This document shows, in pieces, positions 1 through 26,155 of a DNA stretch of 31,107 bases (within the stretch, counting starts at the first letter, position 1; each line of letters starts with the position of its first letter). Made by a program: the position numbers and the translations under genes. Source of the stretch: a virus (taxonomy: Duplodnaviria > Heunggongvirae > Uroviricota > Caudoviricetes); the IMG/VR virus record IMGVR_UViG_2713896798_000014; one strand, given 5' to 3'. The notes below the pieces were generated by a model. The model was not told the origin of the DNA. It saw nothing but the letters and a program-made list of their open reading frames with translations, and searched no databases.

Positions 1-573
1 ATGTTTTGCGAAGAAAAAGTAGCTCAAATGGCTGCATACCTACTTCTTAAGCGAGGTGGGCGCATGGCATATCTGAAATTGATGAAGCTGCTCTATCTGT
101 CTAACCGCAAGTCGATTTTGAAGCATGGCAGGATGATCGGCGAAGATAGCCTTTACTCTATGAAATTTGGTCCAGTCATGTCGAATACGCTGAACTTGAT
201 TCGTGGTAAGGCTGAAGGCATTGGTGACTACTGGTACAACTTGATAGAGACGAACGGGCATGATGTGTTGTTGCGTTCAGATCCGAGGGAAATGGATGCA
301 GACGAGGTCTTTGATGAGTTGAGCCGTGCAGATATCCGGATTTTAGATGAAATCTATTCTCTGTATGGGCATATGAACCGATTTGATCTCGCAAACATGA
401 CGCATTTAGAAAGCGTTTGTCCAGAGTGGCACAATCCTGGCAATTCTCGTAAGCCTATAGACCTGAAAGAAATGCTGATCAGTGAGGGTAAAAGCGAGGA
501 TGAGGCTAATCGCATAATTGGCAAAATGGAAGAATCTCAGAAACTTAAGGAATTTTCTTTGCAATTATCATGA
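1..573 (+). CDS. Panacea-domain (DUF4065) SocA/GepA-like protein, putative antitoxin
   Basis: 190-aa ORF starting at window edge; core KLMKLLYLSNR...GEDSLYSMKFGPV resembles the conserved DUF4065 core as I recall it; stop overlaps next start (ATGA 570-573). True 5' end may lie outside the window. Confidence 0.55.
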   Translation: MFCEEKVAQMAAYLLLKRGGRMAYLKLMKLLYLSNRKSILKHGRMIGEDSLYSMKFGPVMSNTLNLIRGKAEGIGDYWYNLIETNGHDVLLRSDPREMDADEVFDELSRADIRILDEIYSLYGHMNRFDLANMTHLESVCPEWHNPGNSRKPIDLKEMLISEGKSEDEANRIIGKMEESQKLKEFSLQLS

Positions 574-989
574 CGGATTATCAGCCATACAGGAAAGGAA
601 CTGTGCTTGCCCCAACTGGGCCATGCAATCATCTTCATGTGATTTGTAATGATCCTGTTTATTACCCCGTTAACGATTGTTATTGTGTTTTAGTTGTTAA
701 TATTTCTAGTATCAAGGATGGGGTTCCCCACGATCCGTCTTGCGTCTTGAATTCAGGTGATCATCGCTTTATCAAGCATCCAAGTTATGTTGTTTACGCT
801 GAAGCTATAATTTGGCGAGTGGATAACATGGTTAGAAAGCAGCAATCGGGTGAGATTTCTGTTCATGATGATATGCCAGAAGCTACATTCAATAGAATTC
901 TGGACGGTTTTGATATATCTGATGAAGTTACGCCAAAGAACCTTAAATTTAAAAATAAATATTGCGTATCATCTATTGATGATGAGTAA
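570..989 (+). CDS. hypothetical protein, candidate toxin partner of the Panacea-domain gene
   Basis: 139-aa ORF translationally coupled to the upstream gene (4-nt overlap); no family recognised. Confidence 0.5.
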   Translation: MTDYQPYRKGTVLAPTGPCNHLHVICNDPVYYPVNDCYCVLVVNISSIKDGVPHDPSCVLNSGDHRFIKHPSYVVYAEAIIWRVDNMVRKQQSGEISVHDDMPEATFNRILDGFDISDEVTPKNLKFKNKYCVSSIDDE

Positions 990-1028
990 ACAACAGGAAT
1001 TGTTTCGGTATAACTTCTGGAGTTTTCT

Positions 1029-1202
1029 ATGGAAGATCAAAAAGCAACCAAGCCACAGGTTAAGTTCGACACAATGAAAGCATTCGCAGGTATGGGTGCT
1101 GCTGTTGAAGTTCTGATGAAGGCTGCTCCTAATGCGTTCACTCACGCTACTGTCTCTGGTAAAGAGCAGCAGGGTAAGCTTCGTCGTCGCAAAGCAGCAT
1201 GA
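1029..1202 (+). CDS. small hypothetical protein (57 aa)
   Basis: ATG at 1029 preceded by GGAG (1019-1022) with 6-nt spacer; ends just before a strong terminator; below the ORF-track length cutoff. Confidence 0.35.
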   Translation: MEDQKATKPQVKFDTMKAFAGMGAAVEVLMKAAPNAFTHATVSGKEQQGKLRRRKAA

Positions 1203-1221
1203 TCATAGCTGGTGCTTTTTG

Positions 1222-1248
1222 AAAACCCGCCTTCAGGCGGGTTTTTTC
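1222..1248. terminator. rho-independent terminator, likely bidirectional
   Basis: Stem ACCCGCC/GGCGGGT with TTCA loop, T6 run downstream and A-run upstream; lies between convergent genes. Confidence 0.7.
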
Positions 1249-1249
1249 T

Positions 1250-1531
1250 TTAGTGATGTTCTTTGCCCTTCTGTTTGACTGTTCTGACCTGTTCCCACTC
1301 GATACGTCCTTCTTCTCGCCTTTTGTCTATGTATTCCGCAAGATCTTGAATATTGATGCAACGTTTTGCTTTTTGTGATGTGCCGATGCGATATGTTGGA
1401 ACGGGCAACTTACAAGCGTTTGCTTTTGCTTCTGCCGTGGCTGGACTCATACCAAAGTACTTTTGGCTAACTGCTGAGAGTTCAATATTTGGGGTATTGA
1501 ATTCAGCCATCAGTAAAAACAAGGTGTTCAT
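1250..1531 (-). CDS. putative excisionase-like DNA-binding protein (DUF1233-type)
   Basis: Translation MNTLFLLMAEFNTP...YFGMSPATAEAKANACKLPVPTYRIG resembles phage putative-excisionase family; start chosen at ATG 1531 (GGAG 6 nt upstream) rather than track GTG at 1558. Confidence 0.55.
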   Translation of the reverse strand: MNTLFLLMAEFNTPNIELSAVSQKYFGMSPATAEAKANACKLPVPTYRIGTSQKAKRCINIQDLAEYIDKRREEGRIEWEQVRTVKQKGKEHH

Positions 1532-1567
1532 AATTTTCTCCATCAAAACCGGCTGCACCCGGGAAAA

Positions 1568-2140
1568 TCATAATTCTGTGCTGGTGGCAGGAATTAATTT
1601 CTGCCAGATAGCTGAAACATATTTTGCCTGATGACGAGCATCAGCCAGGGCGTTGTGCCGTTCGCCATCGAAAGGCATGTCCATTTTGGGGTCGAATCCG
1701 ATGGAACGCCCAAGCGTAACGATCGTGCGTACATCGTGATCATTCCAGTACGCCCATGGGCAGATTTGTCCTGCTCGTTCATAAGCTCCGCGTAAAATTA
1801 CGTTGTCGAAGGTGGCCCCGTTACCCCAAACTTTTAAATATTTCGTATTGTCTGCGTGCCGATTAATGAAATGGCTCAGTTCAGAGAGTGCATCGCTGAT
1901 CGACAAAGTATCATCAATACAGATTGCAGCTCGTGCTTCAGGGCTTTGTTTCAACCACCACAGGATGGTATCGCCGTCAGGTGTGGCCCCTTGCTCCATA
2001 GCACTGTCCAGGCTGACAACCGCATAAAATTCTTGTCCGATGTCTCCGGTTTCTGGAGTGAAGAACACCGCGCCAATGGAAACGATCGGTGCATCCTTAT
2101 TTTTCCCCATCGTCTCAAGGTCGATCATTAAGTTGTTCAT
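1568..2140 (-). CDS. DnaQ-like (DEDDh) 3'-5' exonuclease
   Basis: Exo motifs MIDLETMG, WGNGATFD and HNALADA in order; GGAGG 7 nt upstream of ATG 2140; start overlaps stop of upstream gene. Confidence 0.75.
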   Translation of the reverse strand: MNNLMIDLETMGKNKDAPIVSIGAVFFTPETGDIGQEFYAVVSLDSAMEQGATPDGDTILWWLKQSPEARAAICIDDTLSISDALSELSHFINRHADNTKYLKVWGNGATFDNVILRGAYERAGQICPWAYWNDHDVRTIVTLGRSIGFDPKMDMPFDGERHNALADARHQAKYVSAIWQKLIPATSTEL

Positions 2141-3039
2141 CACTTCACCTCCTGCGGCGGTTCCGGTAGCGGCATCCAGTGAGTTGCTTGCTCAATACCA
2201 TTACCCGGCTTAATCGTTGCATCTCCGCGCCGAAAAGTGCTTCCGGTATAGCGTGCGGAGCATATTAGCGGTTCAACCAGAGAGCTATCGAAATTCACCG
2301 AAATGAGCACGTTCTGGCCCTTTTCCGGCATTCGCTCACTACAGCTTATCCAACCATCCGGAGTTACCGGAAGCGAGAACGGCAGCACATCTCTGTGAAC
2401 AAGTTTTTGCTGTGACAGGTTATCCAGAACTTTCTGTACTGCTGCATCACCGAATACACCAAGCGCATCTGCCATAACTCCTACAACCTGATAAGCCTCA
2501 GCGCATACCGTGGATAAACCATCCGGAATTACCGGAGAGTTGCCATTTATATCGAAGTTTGGCTCTGCGTCCTGAACCAGGAGGATGTAACCATTCTTGG
2601 CAGTATCAAGTTCTAACGCCTCGGTGACGGTGCCGAAATAGCGATTACCTAAATCAGCATCACAAGTGCTTACATCAATGGAAACTTCCATGCCTTCGAT
2701 TAATTCTGGCAAGTTGTAAGTTTGGCTTACAGGTTGGCTACCCTGAAGCATGGAGGCGCGGTGACACCAGATAATCCAGCCAAGCGCCATATCCCATGCC
2801 ATGTATTCTCTATCGCCATTTTTTGCCCTACGGCGATCTACAGATTCCCCGAAACGCTTCTCCATAAATAATTCATAGGCTGCTCGTTCATCCGATACTG
2901 CTGCCAGTGATGCCAGTGCAATTTTTAATGCGGTAAGCATGTTGTTTTGATCTTCATCGAGTCCGAACGGTATTTCATCCCGTGCTGACTCAATGCTGGT
3001 AATCGTGTTCTGTAACCATTCTTTGGTAAGAGTATTCAT
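2140..3039 (-). CDS. Ead/Ea22-like phage protein with C-terminal DUF551-like region
   Basis: N-terminus MNTLTKEWLQNTITSIE shared with the neighbouring ORF (3235-3702); C-terminal W...MPLPEPP pattern. Confidence 0.55.
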   Translation of the reverse strand: MNTLTKEWLQNTITSIESARDEIPFGLDEDQNNMLTALKIALASLAAVSDERAAYELFMEKRFGESVDRRRAKNGDREYMAWDMALGWIIWCHRASMLQGSQPVSQTYNLPELIEGMEVSIDVSTCDADLGNRYFGTVTEALELDTAKNGYILLVQDAEPNFDINGNSPVIPDGLSTVCAEAYQVVGVMADALGVFGDAAVQKVLDNLSQQKLVHRDVLPFSLPVTPDGWISCSERMPEKGQNVLISVNFDSSLVEPLICSARYTGSTFRRGDATIKPGNGIEQATHWMPLPEPPQEVK

Positions 3040-7261: not shown

Positions 7262-7954
7262 TTAATTGTGTCGCTTAAGGGTTTGTGACTGGCTGATTAA
7301 GACCTTTCCAAAGACCATAAACCGGTGTTCATTTTCGCTGGTAATTCCCCATTCACGATAAATCTGGTTATCAGAAATCACCAGTAGTTTGTCAGGTATC
7401 ATTTGCAGTCGTTTGACATAAATTTTATCATCAAAACCAAATACATAGATACCATCTCCATCAAACTGATTGATACTGACATCAACGAAGATGAGATCTC
7501 CTGGCTCAATGGTTGGACACATACTGTCCCCACGAACGTTGATAACTTTAATGTGATTTGCTGGCCGTCCGCCAAACATCGATACAGCATTATCAGTTCT
7601 GTATTCAATGGCATGAATCACATCAATGACATCTCCGCCCTGGATAAGGCCATTTCCCGCACTGGCACTGATATCCAGCATTTCAATACGGAATACATCC
7701 TTCACCTGCGCAATATCCTCACTAATACTGTTTTTACATACAGTATTACTTTTGAAGTCTGAGGTAAAGAGATCAGCAATATCAACACCTAAGCTCCTGG
7801 CAATATTACTCAGGGCTTGTTCAGTGAATTGTTTCTGCTTACCTGTTTCGAGGCGCGAGATATTCGCCGCATCCACTCCTATTGCTTCAGCGAGATCGGC
7901 GATTTTCATGTTCTTCGCCTGGCGAAGTTGTCTGACTCGATTTCCTATGTTCAT
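7262..7954 (-). CDS. cI: CI-type prophage repressor (HTH + LexA-like S24 peptidase domain)
   Basis: N-terminal HTH (RVRQLRQAKNMKIADLAEAIGVDAANISRLETG) and C-terminal S24 pattern with G-D-S-M (VRGDSMCPTIEPGDLIFVD...YVKRL). Confidence 0.85.
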   Translation of the reverse strand: MNIGNRVRQLRQAKNMKIADLAEAIGVDAANISRLETGKQKQFTEQALSNIARSLGVDIADLFTSDFKSNTVCKNSISEDIAQVKDVFRIEMLDISASAGNGLIQGGDVIDVIHAIEYRTDNAVSMFGGRPANHIKVINVRGDSMCPTIEPGDLIFVDVSINQFDGDGIYVFGFDDKIYVKRLQMIPDKLLVISDNQIYREWGITSENEHRFMVFGKVLISQSQTLKRHN

Positions 7955-17772: not shown

Positions 17773-19623
17773 ATGTCGATTAAACATTATGATGTTGTCA
17801 GGGCGGCGTCGCCGTCAGACCTTGCGGAAAAGCTGACACATAAACTGAAAGAGGGCTGGCAGCCGTTTGGTAGTCCGGTGGCCATAACCCCTTATACCCT
17901 GATGCAGGCGATTGCAGCAGAAGGTGATGTGGTGGTCAGTGGTGCAACTGAGCCGGAGTGGTACTACGTCATCGTACTGGCCGGGCAGTCCAATGCCATG
18001 GCTTACGGTGAAGGGCTTCCGCTGCCGGATTCATACGATGCTCCGGATCCGCGCATTAAACAGCTGGCGCGCCGCAGTACAGTGACGCCGGGTGGGGCTG
18101 CCTGCAGATATAACGATATTATTCCGGCCGACCATTGCCTGCATGATGTGCAGGATATGAGTACGCTGAATCATCCGAAGGCAGACCTGAGCAAAGGGCA
18201 GTACGGCTGTGTCGGCCAGGGGTTACATATTGCCAAAAAACTGCTCCCGTATATCCCGAATAACGCGGGGATCCTGCTGGTACCATGCTGTCGTGGTGGT
18301 TCGGCATTCACCCAGGGCGCGGAGGGGACATTCAGTGCGGACACGGGGGCCAGCCAGGATTCGGCGCGCTGGGGTGTGGGTAAACCGTTATATCAGGACC
18401 TGATTGCGCGCACCAAAGCTGCATTACAGAAGAACCCGAAAAATGTGTTGCTGGCGGTGTGCTGGATGCAGGGAGAGTTTGACATGAGCGCCGCCACCCA
18501 CGCACAGCAACCTGCGCTGTTTACAGCCATGCTGAAGCAGTTTCGTGCTGACCTCACTGTGTTTAACGCGCAGTGTCATGGTGGCAGTGCTGCAGATGTG
18601 CCGTGGATTTGTGGTGACACGACGTATTACTGGAAAAATACATACGCTACCCAGTACGACACCGTGTACGGCGGGTATAAAAACAGGGAGAGTGAGGGCG
18701 TTTATTTTGTGCCCTTCATGACAGACGGTAACGGCGTTAATACCGCCACTAACGCGCCGGCAGAAGATCCGGATATTCCGGCATCAGGATATTACGGTGC
18801 GGCATCGAGAACGAATGGAAACCAGGTATCATCAAACCGCCCGACACATTTCAGTTCATGGGCGCGCAGGAGCATTATTCCGGATCGTCTGGCAACCGCT
18901 ATTCTGAACGCAGCCGGGCGCACCTCAGCCTTCATCAGTGGTAAGGCACCGGAAATCAAACCCTCGCCCGGCGGCAACACGCCATCGGGTCCGTCTGCAG
19001 ATACGTCCGTTCGCACAATCTCCCTGCTGCCGGCAGCCGGAGAGGCTGCTGCGCAGGGCTGGAGCATTAAGGATGGCGGAATTCAGTTGTCAGATGGTGT
19101 ATTTAAGATCACCAAGCAGAGCAATAAAACCTGGTCCCTGACGCATCCGGTGGATGACGCAATTACCCTGCTGACACAGGGTGGCAGACTGAACTGTAAG
19201 TTCCGCCTGTCAGGCGCACTGACCAACAATCAGTTCGGGCTGGGGATTTATCTGTATACGGATGCTCCCGTTCCTGATGGTGTGGCGATGACGGGTACCG
19301 GTAATCCGTTCCTGATGTCGTACTTCACTCAGACCACTGACGGCAGAGTGAATCTGATGCATCACAGGAAAGCCGGAAACACGAAGCTGGGGGAGTTCGG
19401 CGATTACGGTAACGACTGGCAGACGCTGGAGCTGGTGTTCACCGCCGGCAGTGCCACGGTTACTCCGAAACTGAATGGAGTGGCTGGCCCGGCATTCCAG
19501 GTTATAAAAGACAGTCTGAAAGTGGGGCTGAATGCGCTGACGTTAACTGACATCACAAAAGGTGCCACGTACGGCGTTGAGATAGAAAGTCTGGTGCTGG
19601 AGATAAATACACTGGCAGCATAA
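17773..19623 (+). CDS. nanS: NanS-p-like sialate O-acetylesterase (DUF1737 N-terminus + SGNH/SASA-like domain)
   Basis: N-terminus MSIKHYDVVRAASPSDLAEKLTHKLKEGWQPFGSPV and esterase block VIVLAGQSNAMAYGE; GGGAGA 6 nt upstream; occupies the position of Stx-phage yjhS/nanS-p. Confidence 0.75.
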   Translation: MSIKHYDVVRAASPSDLAEKLTHKLKEGWQPFGSPVAITPYTLMQAIAAEGDVVVSGATEPEWYYVIVLAGQSNAMAYGEGLPLPDSYDAPDPRIKQLARRSTVTPGGAACRYNDIIPADHCLHDVQDMSTLNHPKADLSKGQYGCVGQGLHIAKKLLPYIPNNAGILLVPCCRGGSAFTQGAEGTFSADTGASQDSARWGVGKPLYQDLIARTKAALQKNPKNVLLAVCWMQGEFDMSAATHAQQPALFTAMLKQFRADLTVFNAQCHGGSAADVPWICGDTTYYWKNTYATQYDTVYGGYKNRESEGVYFVPFMTDGNGVNTATNAPAEDPDIPASGYYGAASRTNGNQVSSNRPTHFSSWARRSIIPDRLATAILNAAGRTSAFISGKAPEIKPSPGGNTPSGPSADTSVRTISLLPAAGEAAAQGWSIKDGGIQLSDGVFKITKQSNKTWSLTHPVDDAITLLTQGGRLNCKFRLSGALTNNQFGLGIYLYTDAPVPDGVAMTGTGNPFLMSYFTQTTDGRVNLMHHRKAGNTKLGEFGDYGNDWQTLELVFTAGSATVTPKLNGVAGPAFQVIKDSLKVGLNALTLTDITKGATYGVEIESLVLEINTLAA

Positions 19624-24583: not shown

Positions 24584-26155
24584 ATGGACACCTCACTTGC
24601 TCATGAGAACGCCCGCCTGCGGGCACTGTTGCAGACGCAACAGGACACCATCCGCCAGATGGCTGAATACAACCGCCTGCTCTCACAGCGGGTGGCGGCT
24701 TATGCTTCCGAAATCAACCGGCTGAAGGCGCTGGTTGCGAAACTGCAACGTATGCAGTTCGGTAAAAGCTCAGAAAAACTTCGTGCAAAAACCGAACGGC
24801 AGATACAGGAAGCACAGGAGCGAATCAGCGCACTTCAGGAAGAAATGGCGGAAACGCTGGGTGAGCAATATGACCCGGTACTGCCATCCGCCCTGCGCCA
24901 GTCTTCAGCCCGTAAACCGTTACCGGCCTCACTTCCCCGTGAAACCCGGGTTATCCGGCCGGAAGAGGAATGCTGTCCTGCCTGTGGTGGTGAACTCAGT
25001 TCTCTGGGATGTGATGTGTCAGAGCAACTGGAGCTTATCAGCAGCGCCTTTAAGGTTATCGAAACACAACGTCCGAAACAGGCCTGTTGCCGGTGCGACC
25101 ATATCGTGCAGGCACCAGTACCTTCAAAACCCATTGCACGCAGTTATGCCGGAGCGGGGCTTCTGGCCCATGTTGTCACCGGGAAATATGCAGACCATCT
25201 GCCGTTATACCGCCAGTCAGAAATATACCGTCGTCAGGGAGTGGAGCTGAGCCGTGCCACACTGGGGCGCTGGACAGGTGCTGTTGCTGAACTGCTGGAG
25301 CCGCTGTATGACGTCCTGCGCCAGTATGTGCTGATGCCCGGTAAAGTCCATGCTGATGATATCCCCGTCCCGGTCCAGGAGCCGGGCAGCGGTAAAACCC
25401 GGACAGCCCGGCTGTGGGTCTACGTCCGTGATGACCGTAACGCCGGTTCACAGATGCCCCCGGCGGTCTGGTTCGCGTACAGTCCGGACCGGAAAGGTAT
25501 CCATCCACAAAATCACCTGGCCGGTTACAGCGGTGTGCTTCAGGCCGATGCTTACGGTGGTTACCGGGCGTTATACGAATCCGGCAGAATAACGGAAGCC
25601 GCGTGTATGGCTCATGCCCGGAGAAAAATCCACGATGTGCATGCAAGAGCGCCCACCTACATCACCACGGAAGCCCTGCAGCGTATCGGTGAACTGTATG
25701 CCATCGAGGCAGAGGTCCGGGGCTGTTCAGCAGAACAGCGTCTGGCGGCAAGAAAAGCCAGAGCCGCGCCACTGATGCAGTCACTGTATGACTGGATACA
25801 GCAACAGATGAAAACACTGTCGCGTCACTCAGATACGGCAAAAGCGTTCGCATACCTGCTGAAACAGTGGGATGCACTGAACGTGTACTGCAGTAATGGC
25901 TGGGTGGAAATCGACAACAACATCGCAGAGAACGCCTTACGGGGAGTGGCCGTAGGCCGGAAAAACTGGATGTTCGCGGGTTCCGACAGCGGTGGTGAAC
26001 ATGCGGCGGTGTTGTACTCGCTGATCGGCACATGCCGTCTGAACAATGTGGAGCCAGAAAAGTGGCTGCGTTACGTCATTGAACATATCCAGGACTGGCC
26101 GGCAAACCGGGTACGCGATCTGTTGCCCTGGAAAGTTGATCTGAGCTCTCAGTAA
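24584..26155 (+). CDS. IS66-family transposase (TnpC)
   Basis: 523 aa; N-terminal leucine-zipper-like region, CxxC...CxxC zinc motif, conserved core typical of IS66 transposases. Confidence 0.85.

Follow-up and report, generated by a model that had tools for sequence, protein, structure and literature searches.

A predicted PanA-PanT toxin-antitoxin module of PanT cluster T6 carried by a dusA-integrated Escherichia coli prophage

The window analyzed here is a 31,107-nucleotide stretch of DNA from a virus affiliated with the Caudoviricetes (IMG/VR record IMGVR_UViG_2713896798_000014). Its first two genes, panA and panT (positions 1–989), probably constitute a type II toxin-antitoxin (TA) module of the PanA-PanT (PanAT) family, in which a translation-inhibiting toxin of PanT cluster T6 is neutralized by PanA and which is carried as cargo by a prophage integrated at dusA. 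We identified a Panacea domain in PanA, a MazF fold in the structural model of PanT, strict pairing of the two genes across genomes, membership of the toxin in cluster T6, and a prophage context for the pair.

The panA-panT pair and its link to PanAT cluster T6

A first-pass annotation, made by a model from the sequence and its open reading frames (ORFs), placed the core of a DUF4065/Panacea domain in the ORF at positions 1–573 (ORF1) and noted that this ORF overlaps a 139-amino acid ORF (ORF2) by 4 nt, a layout typical of two-gene TA modules. The searches reported here bear out each of these statements. ORF1 (panA) matched the Pfam model PF13274 (SocA_Panacea) with a score of 67.9 bits (cut-off of 25.7; E = 1.8e-18) over residues 27–137, covering profile positions 1–109 of 113, and its product carries the RefSeq name ‘Panacea domain-containing protein’ (WP_000458583.1). 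An AlphaFold2 model of PanA was confident over the whole chain (predicted local distance difference test [pLDDT], 93.4; predicted template modeling score [pTM], 0.89), including two helices (residues 155–161 and 166–189) located C-terminal to the Pfam domain. PanA lacks any N-terminal domain; it is a stand-alone Panacea protein. Because the model is confident throughout, C-terminal helices included, PanA does not resemble MazE with its disordered tail. Stand-alone Panacea proteins can neutralize their toxins directly via the conserved core of the domain, and in PanA of Corynebacterium doosanense it is two extra C-terminal helices that do the neutralizing (Ernits et al., 2023; PMC10440598). Either mode could apply to the PanA described here, whose Panacea core is located around G57-P58 and T134-H135.

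To evaluate the pairing of the two genes, we scanned genomes (one per species) for homologs of the toxin and recovered 26 loci among gamma-, beta-, and alpha-proteobacteria, 23 of which included upstream DNA; in one further locus the upstream gene was masked by Ns. All 23 loci encode a PanA homolog of 184–227 amino acids directly upstream and on the same strand, and these upstream ORFs align with PanA from the window at 24–87% identity. The start of the toxin gene could be assigned in 22 of the 23 loci; in each of these the gap between panA and panT is between -4 and +33 nt, and in 12 it is the 4-nt ATGA overlap. The same arrangement was identified in viral contigs, where a PanA match ends at the start of the toxin in all 15 contigs with upstream DNA, and among more distant relatives of the toxin (32–36% identity), where a precomputed PF13274 gene is located directly upstream in three of three cases. 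ORF2 was therefore paired with a Panacea gene in every locus examined. Lack of a Panacea match in ORF1 or of conserved pairing of ORF2 with Panacea genes would have counted against the first-pass annotation, and neither was observed. The small ORF that follows panT in the window (orf57) is not conserved alongside the pair.

Screening of 5,426 complete E. coli genomes revealed panAT in 208, and the pair is essentially complete in 206 of these. At least one of the two exceptional genomes retains panA with a truncated toxin gene: positions 5111034–5111743 of NZ_CP074819.1 match only positions 1–710 of the window, such that panA is intact and the toxin is cut after approximately 47 codons. A TA pair would be expected to show this kind of asymmetry, in which the antitoxin is retained and the toxin is lost.

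The Panacea domain was named by Kurata et al. (2022; PMC8832971), who replaced the designation DUF4065, gave the name PanA to proteins that bear the domain and PanT to the proteins paired with them, and divided the latter into 88 clusters. In the portion of Dataset S1 of that study considered here, cluster T6 is annotated as ‘EndoA/PemK/MazF-family RNAses’ based on HHpred, and its entries include Yersiniaceae bacterium 2016Iso4 (WP_101821906.1), Pantoea septica LMG 5345, Proteus vulgaris, Pluralibacter gergoviae, Salinivibrio socompensis, and many alpha-proteobacteria; in the same portion, E. coli is represented only in clusters T1 and T3, and the pair from the window was not found. The toxin at one of our genomic loci (L007) is exactly WP_101821906.1, to which ORF2 is 56% identical (E = 6e-50), and a second locus (L009) is that of P. 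septica LMG 5345, to whose toxin ORF2 is likewise 56% identical. By sequence identity, then, panT from the window is assigned to cluster T6.

The validated representative of cluster T6 is the pair from Pseudomonas moraviensis (PanA, WP_083354365.1; PanT, WP_083201923.1). This toxin is toxic and is neutralized by its PanA, with which it forms a complex, and it specifically inhibits the incorporation of 35S-methionine rather than that of thymidine (Kurata et al., 2022; PMC8832971). The P. moraviensis pair resembles the pair from the window in several respects: a stand-alone Panacea antitoxin that lacks an N-terminal domain comes first, the genes overlap or abut, and the toxin comprises approximately 130 amino acids, has no conserved domain, and is MazF-like by structure or HHpred. 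The N-termini of the two PanA proteins are also alike over the first residues, which is the extent of the comparison (MFCEEKVAQ in the window and MIFSEQKVAQ in P. moraviensis). The two pairs differ in context, in that the pair from P. moraviensis carries the flag ‘NotPhage’ in the part of the published dataset considered here, whereas the pair from the window is prophage cargo.

Two side observations concern how these genes appear in databases. Dozens of IMG/VR viral contigs (among L030–L093) begin exactly at the ATG of panA and others begin exactly at the ATG of panT; calls of the prophage boundary at the left attachment site (attL) are thus placed at gene starts, which in some cases separates the two TA genes. 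In addition, the 90%-identity protein cluster that holds ORF2 in its 128- and 139-amino acid forms (P0064–P0078) also holds the 190-amino acid PanA and a 232-amino acid, N-terminally extended PanA; this grouping of two unrelated proteins is presumably a clustering artifact of overlapping genes.

Family, fold, and conserved residues of PanT

The first-pass annotation recognized no toxin family in ORF2, and this held at the level of sequence databases but not of structure or published classification. ORF2 had no match beyond noise in Pfam, NCBIfam, or PADLOC (ICMT, E = 0.048; DapC, E = 0.002), matched only a family of unknown function in PHROGs (phrog_19071), and returned nothing below E = 0.47 in a profile search of PDB sequences. 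An initial search recovered 63 clusters of hypothetical proteins of approximately 133 amino acids from Enterobacterales, Vibrio, and Shewanella, and a profile search over 1.84 billion cluster representatives (50% identity clusters) recovered 2,731 clusters at E ≤ 1e-3 and 945 at E ≤ 1e-10. The family is therefore large and is without any Pfam model.

An AlphaFold2 model of ORF2 built from an alignment of 31 sequences (pLDDT, 89; pTM, 0.82) comprises strands at residues 10–16, 19–25, 37–47, and 72–83 and helices at residues 84–92, 104–116, and 122–131. These form a MazF/Kid-like beta-barrel (residues ~10–99), which falls within the SH3-like barrel fold of CcdB and MazF, followed by a C-terminal helical extension (residues 104–131). 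The top 47 matches to this model in a Foldseek search of the PDB were all MazF, with a best E-value of 6.9e-3, probabilities of ~1.0 for the leading matches, and template modeling (TM) scores of 0.43–0.60; in BFVD, the best matches were phage ‘PemK-like’ proteins. CcdB was not the best match by either structure or sequence. Based on this model, ORF2 is a protein of the MazF/CcdB fold that is not placeable in the PemK family by sequence.

In an alignment of 255 full-length relatives, the conserved positions were H21 (254/255), S/T47 (253/255), D55 (251/255), C58 (252/255), H65 (252/255), F67 (249/255), Y76 (251/255), G113 (247/255), and S117 (242/255), of which the first five are nearly invariant polar or reactive candidates for an active site. 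H23 and C26 were conserved in close relatives only. The catalytic residues of E. coli MazF are R29 and T52. By order of strands, H21 opens beta2 of the PanT model at the place of H28-R29 in E. coli MazF, and S/T47 closes beta3 at the place of T52, while no Arg is conserved near beta2; the same segments are paired in the sole hhalign alignment obtained, which was not significant, and the equivalence is one of strand order rather than of superposition. This arrangement suggests that H21 may take the place of the catalytic Arg and S/T47 that of the Thr, and that D55, C58, and H65 would complete an active or binding site.

These observations, taken with those from the P. moraviensis homolog, are consistent with a mechanism in which PanT would most likely block translation and so arrest growth, probably by acting as a sequence-specific endoribonuclease, and PanA would most likely neutralize it by direct binding. 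RNA cleavage would proceed via H21 and S/T47 in place of the Arg/Thr pair, with D55, C58, and H65 nearby, and the ATGA overlap would couple translation of the two genes and keep antitoxin and toxin in step. For the element that carries the module, the benefit may be stabilization of the prophage, defense of the lysogen, or both.

Gene layout and prophage context

Coordinates of the module and of other features of the window are compiled in Table 1. Position 1 is the true start of panA, as indicated by 24 PanA homologs that align from that Met. For ORF2, the start differs among records: it is ATG 570 in the phage record MT225100 and GTG 603 in RefSeq/PGAP, where the gene encodes a ‘hypothetical protein’ of 128 amino acids (WP_133253836.1). 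The 11 residues upstream of GTG 603 (MTxYxPYRKGT) include P6, G10, and T11, which are conserved in homologs. Because residues 1–11 are conserved in relatives, we consider ATG 570, with its 4-nt overlap, to be correct; the RefSeq start drops these residues and masks the overlap with panA.

Table 1. Features of the window, in order of position
Feature	Position	Strand	Comment
panA (predicted antitoxin, 190 amino acids)	1–573	+	ATG start; PF13274 match
ATGA overlap of panA stop and panT start (putative translational coupling)	570–573	+	Read from sequence
panT (predicted toxin, 139 amino acids, PanT cluster T6)	570–989	+	ATG start
orf57 (57 amino acids, phrog_2741, function unknown)	1029–1202	+	Between panT and terminator
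Intrinsic terminator hairpin	1221–1246		A/T runs on flanks; terminator scan
PrtN/excisionase gene (xis)	1250–1558	-	Converges on terminator
Rv2179c-like 3'-5' exonuclease gene	1568–2143	-	Converges on terminator
CI-like repressor	7262–7954	-	
Rha/Ash regulator; replication gene			Within the window prophage
nanS-like esterase (616 amino acids)	17773–19623		DUF1737, SASA (sialate O-acetylesterase) domain, DUF6645
IS66-family transposase	24584–26155		
Integrase (int)	28508–29605	-	
dusA, intact	29694–30731	+	

The 57-amino acid ORF and the terminator that the first-pass annotation placed after the pair are both present. The terminator was scanned on a RefSeq locus that is 100% identical to the window (L001, 7221–7246) and comprises an 11-bp stem with six G-C pairs, a 4-nt loop, and a T run; it separates the panA-panT-orf57 unit from the convergent excisionase gene. 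A search of positions 1–1700 against Rfam yielded only sub-threshold matches, all of them terminator-like and located on the hairpin. The promoter of panA and panT is located outside of the window. A promoter scan of the RefSeq locus revealed one sigma-70-like site (9/12) at 127 nt upstream of panA, but we do not claim a promoter since the number of such sites (3) was not in excess of that in shuffled sequence (4.6).

The first 1,300 bases of the window match E. coli chromosomes at 100% identity, and in those chromosomes a 5' fragment of dusA precedes them; in the phage Lys8385Vzw the three genes (panA, panT, and orf57) are located between int and xis. The pair therefore abuts the phage attachment site (attP) or attL. 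The window itself approximates an entire dusA-integrated lambdoid prophage of ~29.6 kb that extends from attL, at panA, to int and is followed by dusA. Esterases like the NanS homolog encoded in it are typical of lambdoid and Shiga toxin (Stx) prophages. In a partial sampling of the window with Pfam models, head and tail genes were not seen from the lysis region to int; the prophage may be defective, a remnant whose retention the TA module would aid.

The distribution of orf57, which matches phrog_2741 with E = 8e-36, differs from that of the pair. In E. coli, 565 genomes encode orf57 and xis together, whereas panAT occurs in 208; orf57 is present with xis in the phage mEp460 (NC_019716), from which panAT is absent; and it does not accompany panAT in other genera or in viral loci (L094–L109). 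Given this distribution, orf57 is a neighboring phage gene rather than a component of the module. Because mEp460 shares orf57 and xis with the window but has another gene in place of the pair, an unrelated 177-amino acid gene without a Pfam match (gp23, 1784–2317), panAT is swappable cargo, and the interval from attP to orf57/xis has the appearance of a hot spot for cargo genes.

This variable slot between attL/attP and xis might also be taken to indicate that the pair is primarily an anti-phage system, acting by abortive infection or superinfection exclusion, in which PanA would be a sensor that frees or activates the MazF-fold effector upon infection. We regard this as possible, if unlikely; it is a claim about function and is compatible with TA behavior. 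Several observations are in keeping with it. The GC (guanine plus cytosine) content of the pair (38–44%) is lower than that of adjacent early genes (47–52%), relatives are often located beside integrases, 120 relatives were identified in IMG/VR contigs, and the Panacea domain has been hypothesized to be a sensor domain (Ernits et al., 2023; PMC10440598). However, a search of PADLOC-DB 2.0 returned no matches at E ≤ 1 for ORF1, ORF2, or ORF3, a published phage-defense assay of a T6 PanAT pair was not found in the literature, and location at the edge of a prophage is equally typical of addiction modules. A separate observation from a marine, Oceanospirillum-like source is that the PanA-PanT pair adjoins a tyrosine integrase and then a transposase (L112/L113, 294–2908), which suggests that members of the PanAT family are generally carried at the margins of integrative elements.

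Competing interpretations and implications

Several lines of evidence weigh against interpretation of the pair as a TA module with a MazF-like, translation-inhibiting toxin. The Foldseek E-values are only on the order of 1e-2 and the TM-scores only 0.43–0.60; the fold of ORF2 is also that of CcdB, a gyrase poison. The PemK_toxin model (PF02452) matched one of 53 family members (E = 0.11) and did not match ORF2, and in hhalign comparisons the family profile aligned to E. coli MazF with a probability of 0.3% and to a profile of five sequences (MazF, Kid, ChpBK, and EndoA) with a probability of 0.3%, the MazF sequences used being typed copies rather than database records. Given the hhalign probability, membership of ORF2 in the MazF/PemK family is not claimed at the level of sequence. 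Moreover, the canonical catalytic Arg of MazF is not conserved, with R109 (78%) being the only frequent Arg. The link to the tested P. moraviensis toxin is through published cluster membership rather than direct alignment. Finally, among 25 predicted PanTs, eight lacked toxicity in E. coli and a further five showed toxicity without rescue (Kurata et al., 2022; PMC8832971).

The comparison with MazEF and Kid-Kis (PemIK) extends beyond this undetectable sequence homology. PanT from the window has an invariant His at the presumed place of the catalytic Arg, an additional invariant Asp/Cys/His set, and a 35-amino acid C-terminal helical extension that distinguishes it from the toxins of those systems. 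PanA is fully folded and has no DNA-binding domain, whereas MazE and Kis are of the AbrB or ribbon-helix-helix type with a disordered acidic tail. A further reading, which we consider rather improbable, is that T6 PanTs are not MazF-type RNases but a separate class of enzyme on the MazF/CcdB barrel, with PanA being a phage-triggered switch in an abortive-infection system of the prophage. The Arg/Thr dyad would then be replaced by a nearly invariant His21-Ser/Thr47-Asp55-Cys58-His65 site, which could bind a metal, provide a Cys or His nucleophile, or act on RNA or some other target through His-based acid-base chemistry.

It is improbable that ORF2 is non-toxic in its native host, such that the genes would be a conserved phage pair of other function and PanA would not be an antitoxin. 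The proportion of non-toxic PanTs noted above and the missing canonical Arg would both fit such a scenario; against it, the T6 member that has been tested is toxic and neutralized, the 4-nt coupling and the invariable antitoxin-first order fit a TA pair, and of the two incomplete E. coli copies, at least one retains its antitoxin after loss of the toxin. In addition, the near-invariant polar residues H21, D55, C58, and H65 argue for an enzyme.

Two further possibilities were considered and rejected as very improbable. The barrel fold is shared with CcdB, and ORF2 could in principle poison DNA gyrase rather than cleave RNA, but all of the better-scoring structural matches are MazF/Kid RNases and the tested T6 homolog inhibits translation specifically and not the incorporation of thymidine. 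Alternatively, PanA could act in the manner of SocAB of Caulobacter crescentus, a type VI TA system, as a proteolytic adaptor to ClpXP rather than as a stoichiometric inhibitor. SocA acts through ClpXP, and SocB is an unrelated inhibitor of the replication clamp. SocA is the founding protein of the Panacea domain, for which the Pfam family is named, and both antitoxins have this domain; however, PanA scored 13.5 bits against the SocA equivalog model of NCBIfam (NF047745), for which the cut-off is 190, and the toxin in the window has a MazF fold; direct binding is expected. According to the sections of PMC8832971 considered here, validated PanAT pairs also form the stable complexes typical of type II systems. 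A different comparison, with Doc:PanA of Corynebacterium doosanense, bears on how such binding may occur, since there the C-terminal helices (Phd-C) and not the Panacea core contact and neutralize the toxin (PMC10440598); that toxin is Doc and is not of the MazF fold, and the C-terminal helices of PanA from the window are located at residues 155–189. Least plausible is a tripartite module with orf57 as a functional third component, an idea prompted by its location on the same strand, 39 nt 3' of panT and ahead of the only terminator, and largely refuted by its occurrence without panAT in ~357 E. coli genomes and mEp460 and its absence beside panAT in other genera and viral contigs.

Interpreted as a PanAT module, the pair is a new member, from an E. 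coli prophage, of a family that was described in 2022, with a toxin whose activity is predicted by analogy. Since the family and its TA behavior were published at that time, current understanding of these systems is unchanged; to a specialist, the sole surprise might be that a MazF scaffold carries the non-canonical, invariant His/Ser-Thr/Asp/Cys/His set. Nevertheless, a gene annotated as a ‘hypothetical protein’ in RefSeq, with a start that is 33 nt too far downstream, gains a name and a testable mechanism, and this gene is present in ~4% of complete E. coli genomes, including the O121 and O103 lineages of Shiga toxin-producing E. coli. The conserved set, which is unlike the canonical MazF site, provides five obvious residues to mutate. 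Moreover, the swappable slot by attL of dusA-integrating lambdoid phages offers a natural system in which to compare stabilization of the prophage with defense of the lysogen by PanAT.

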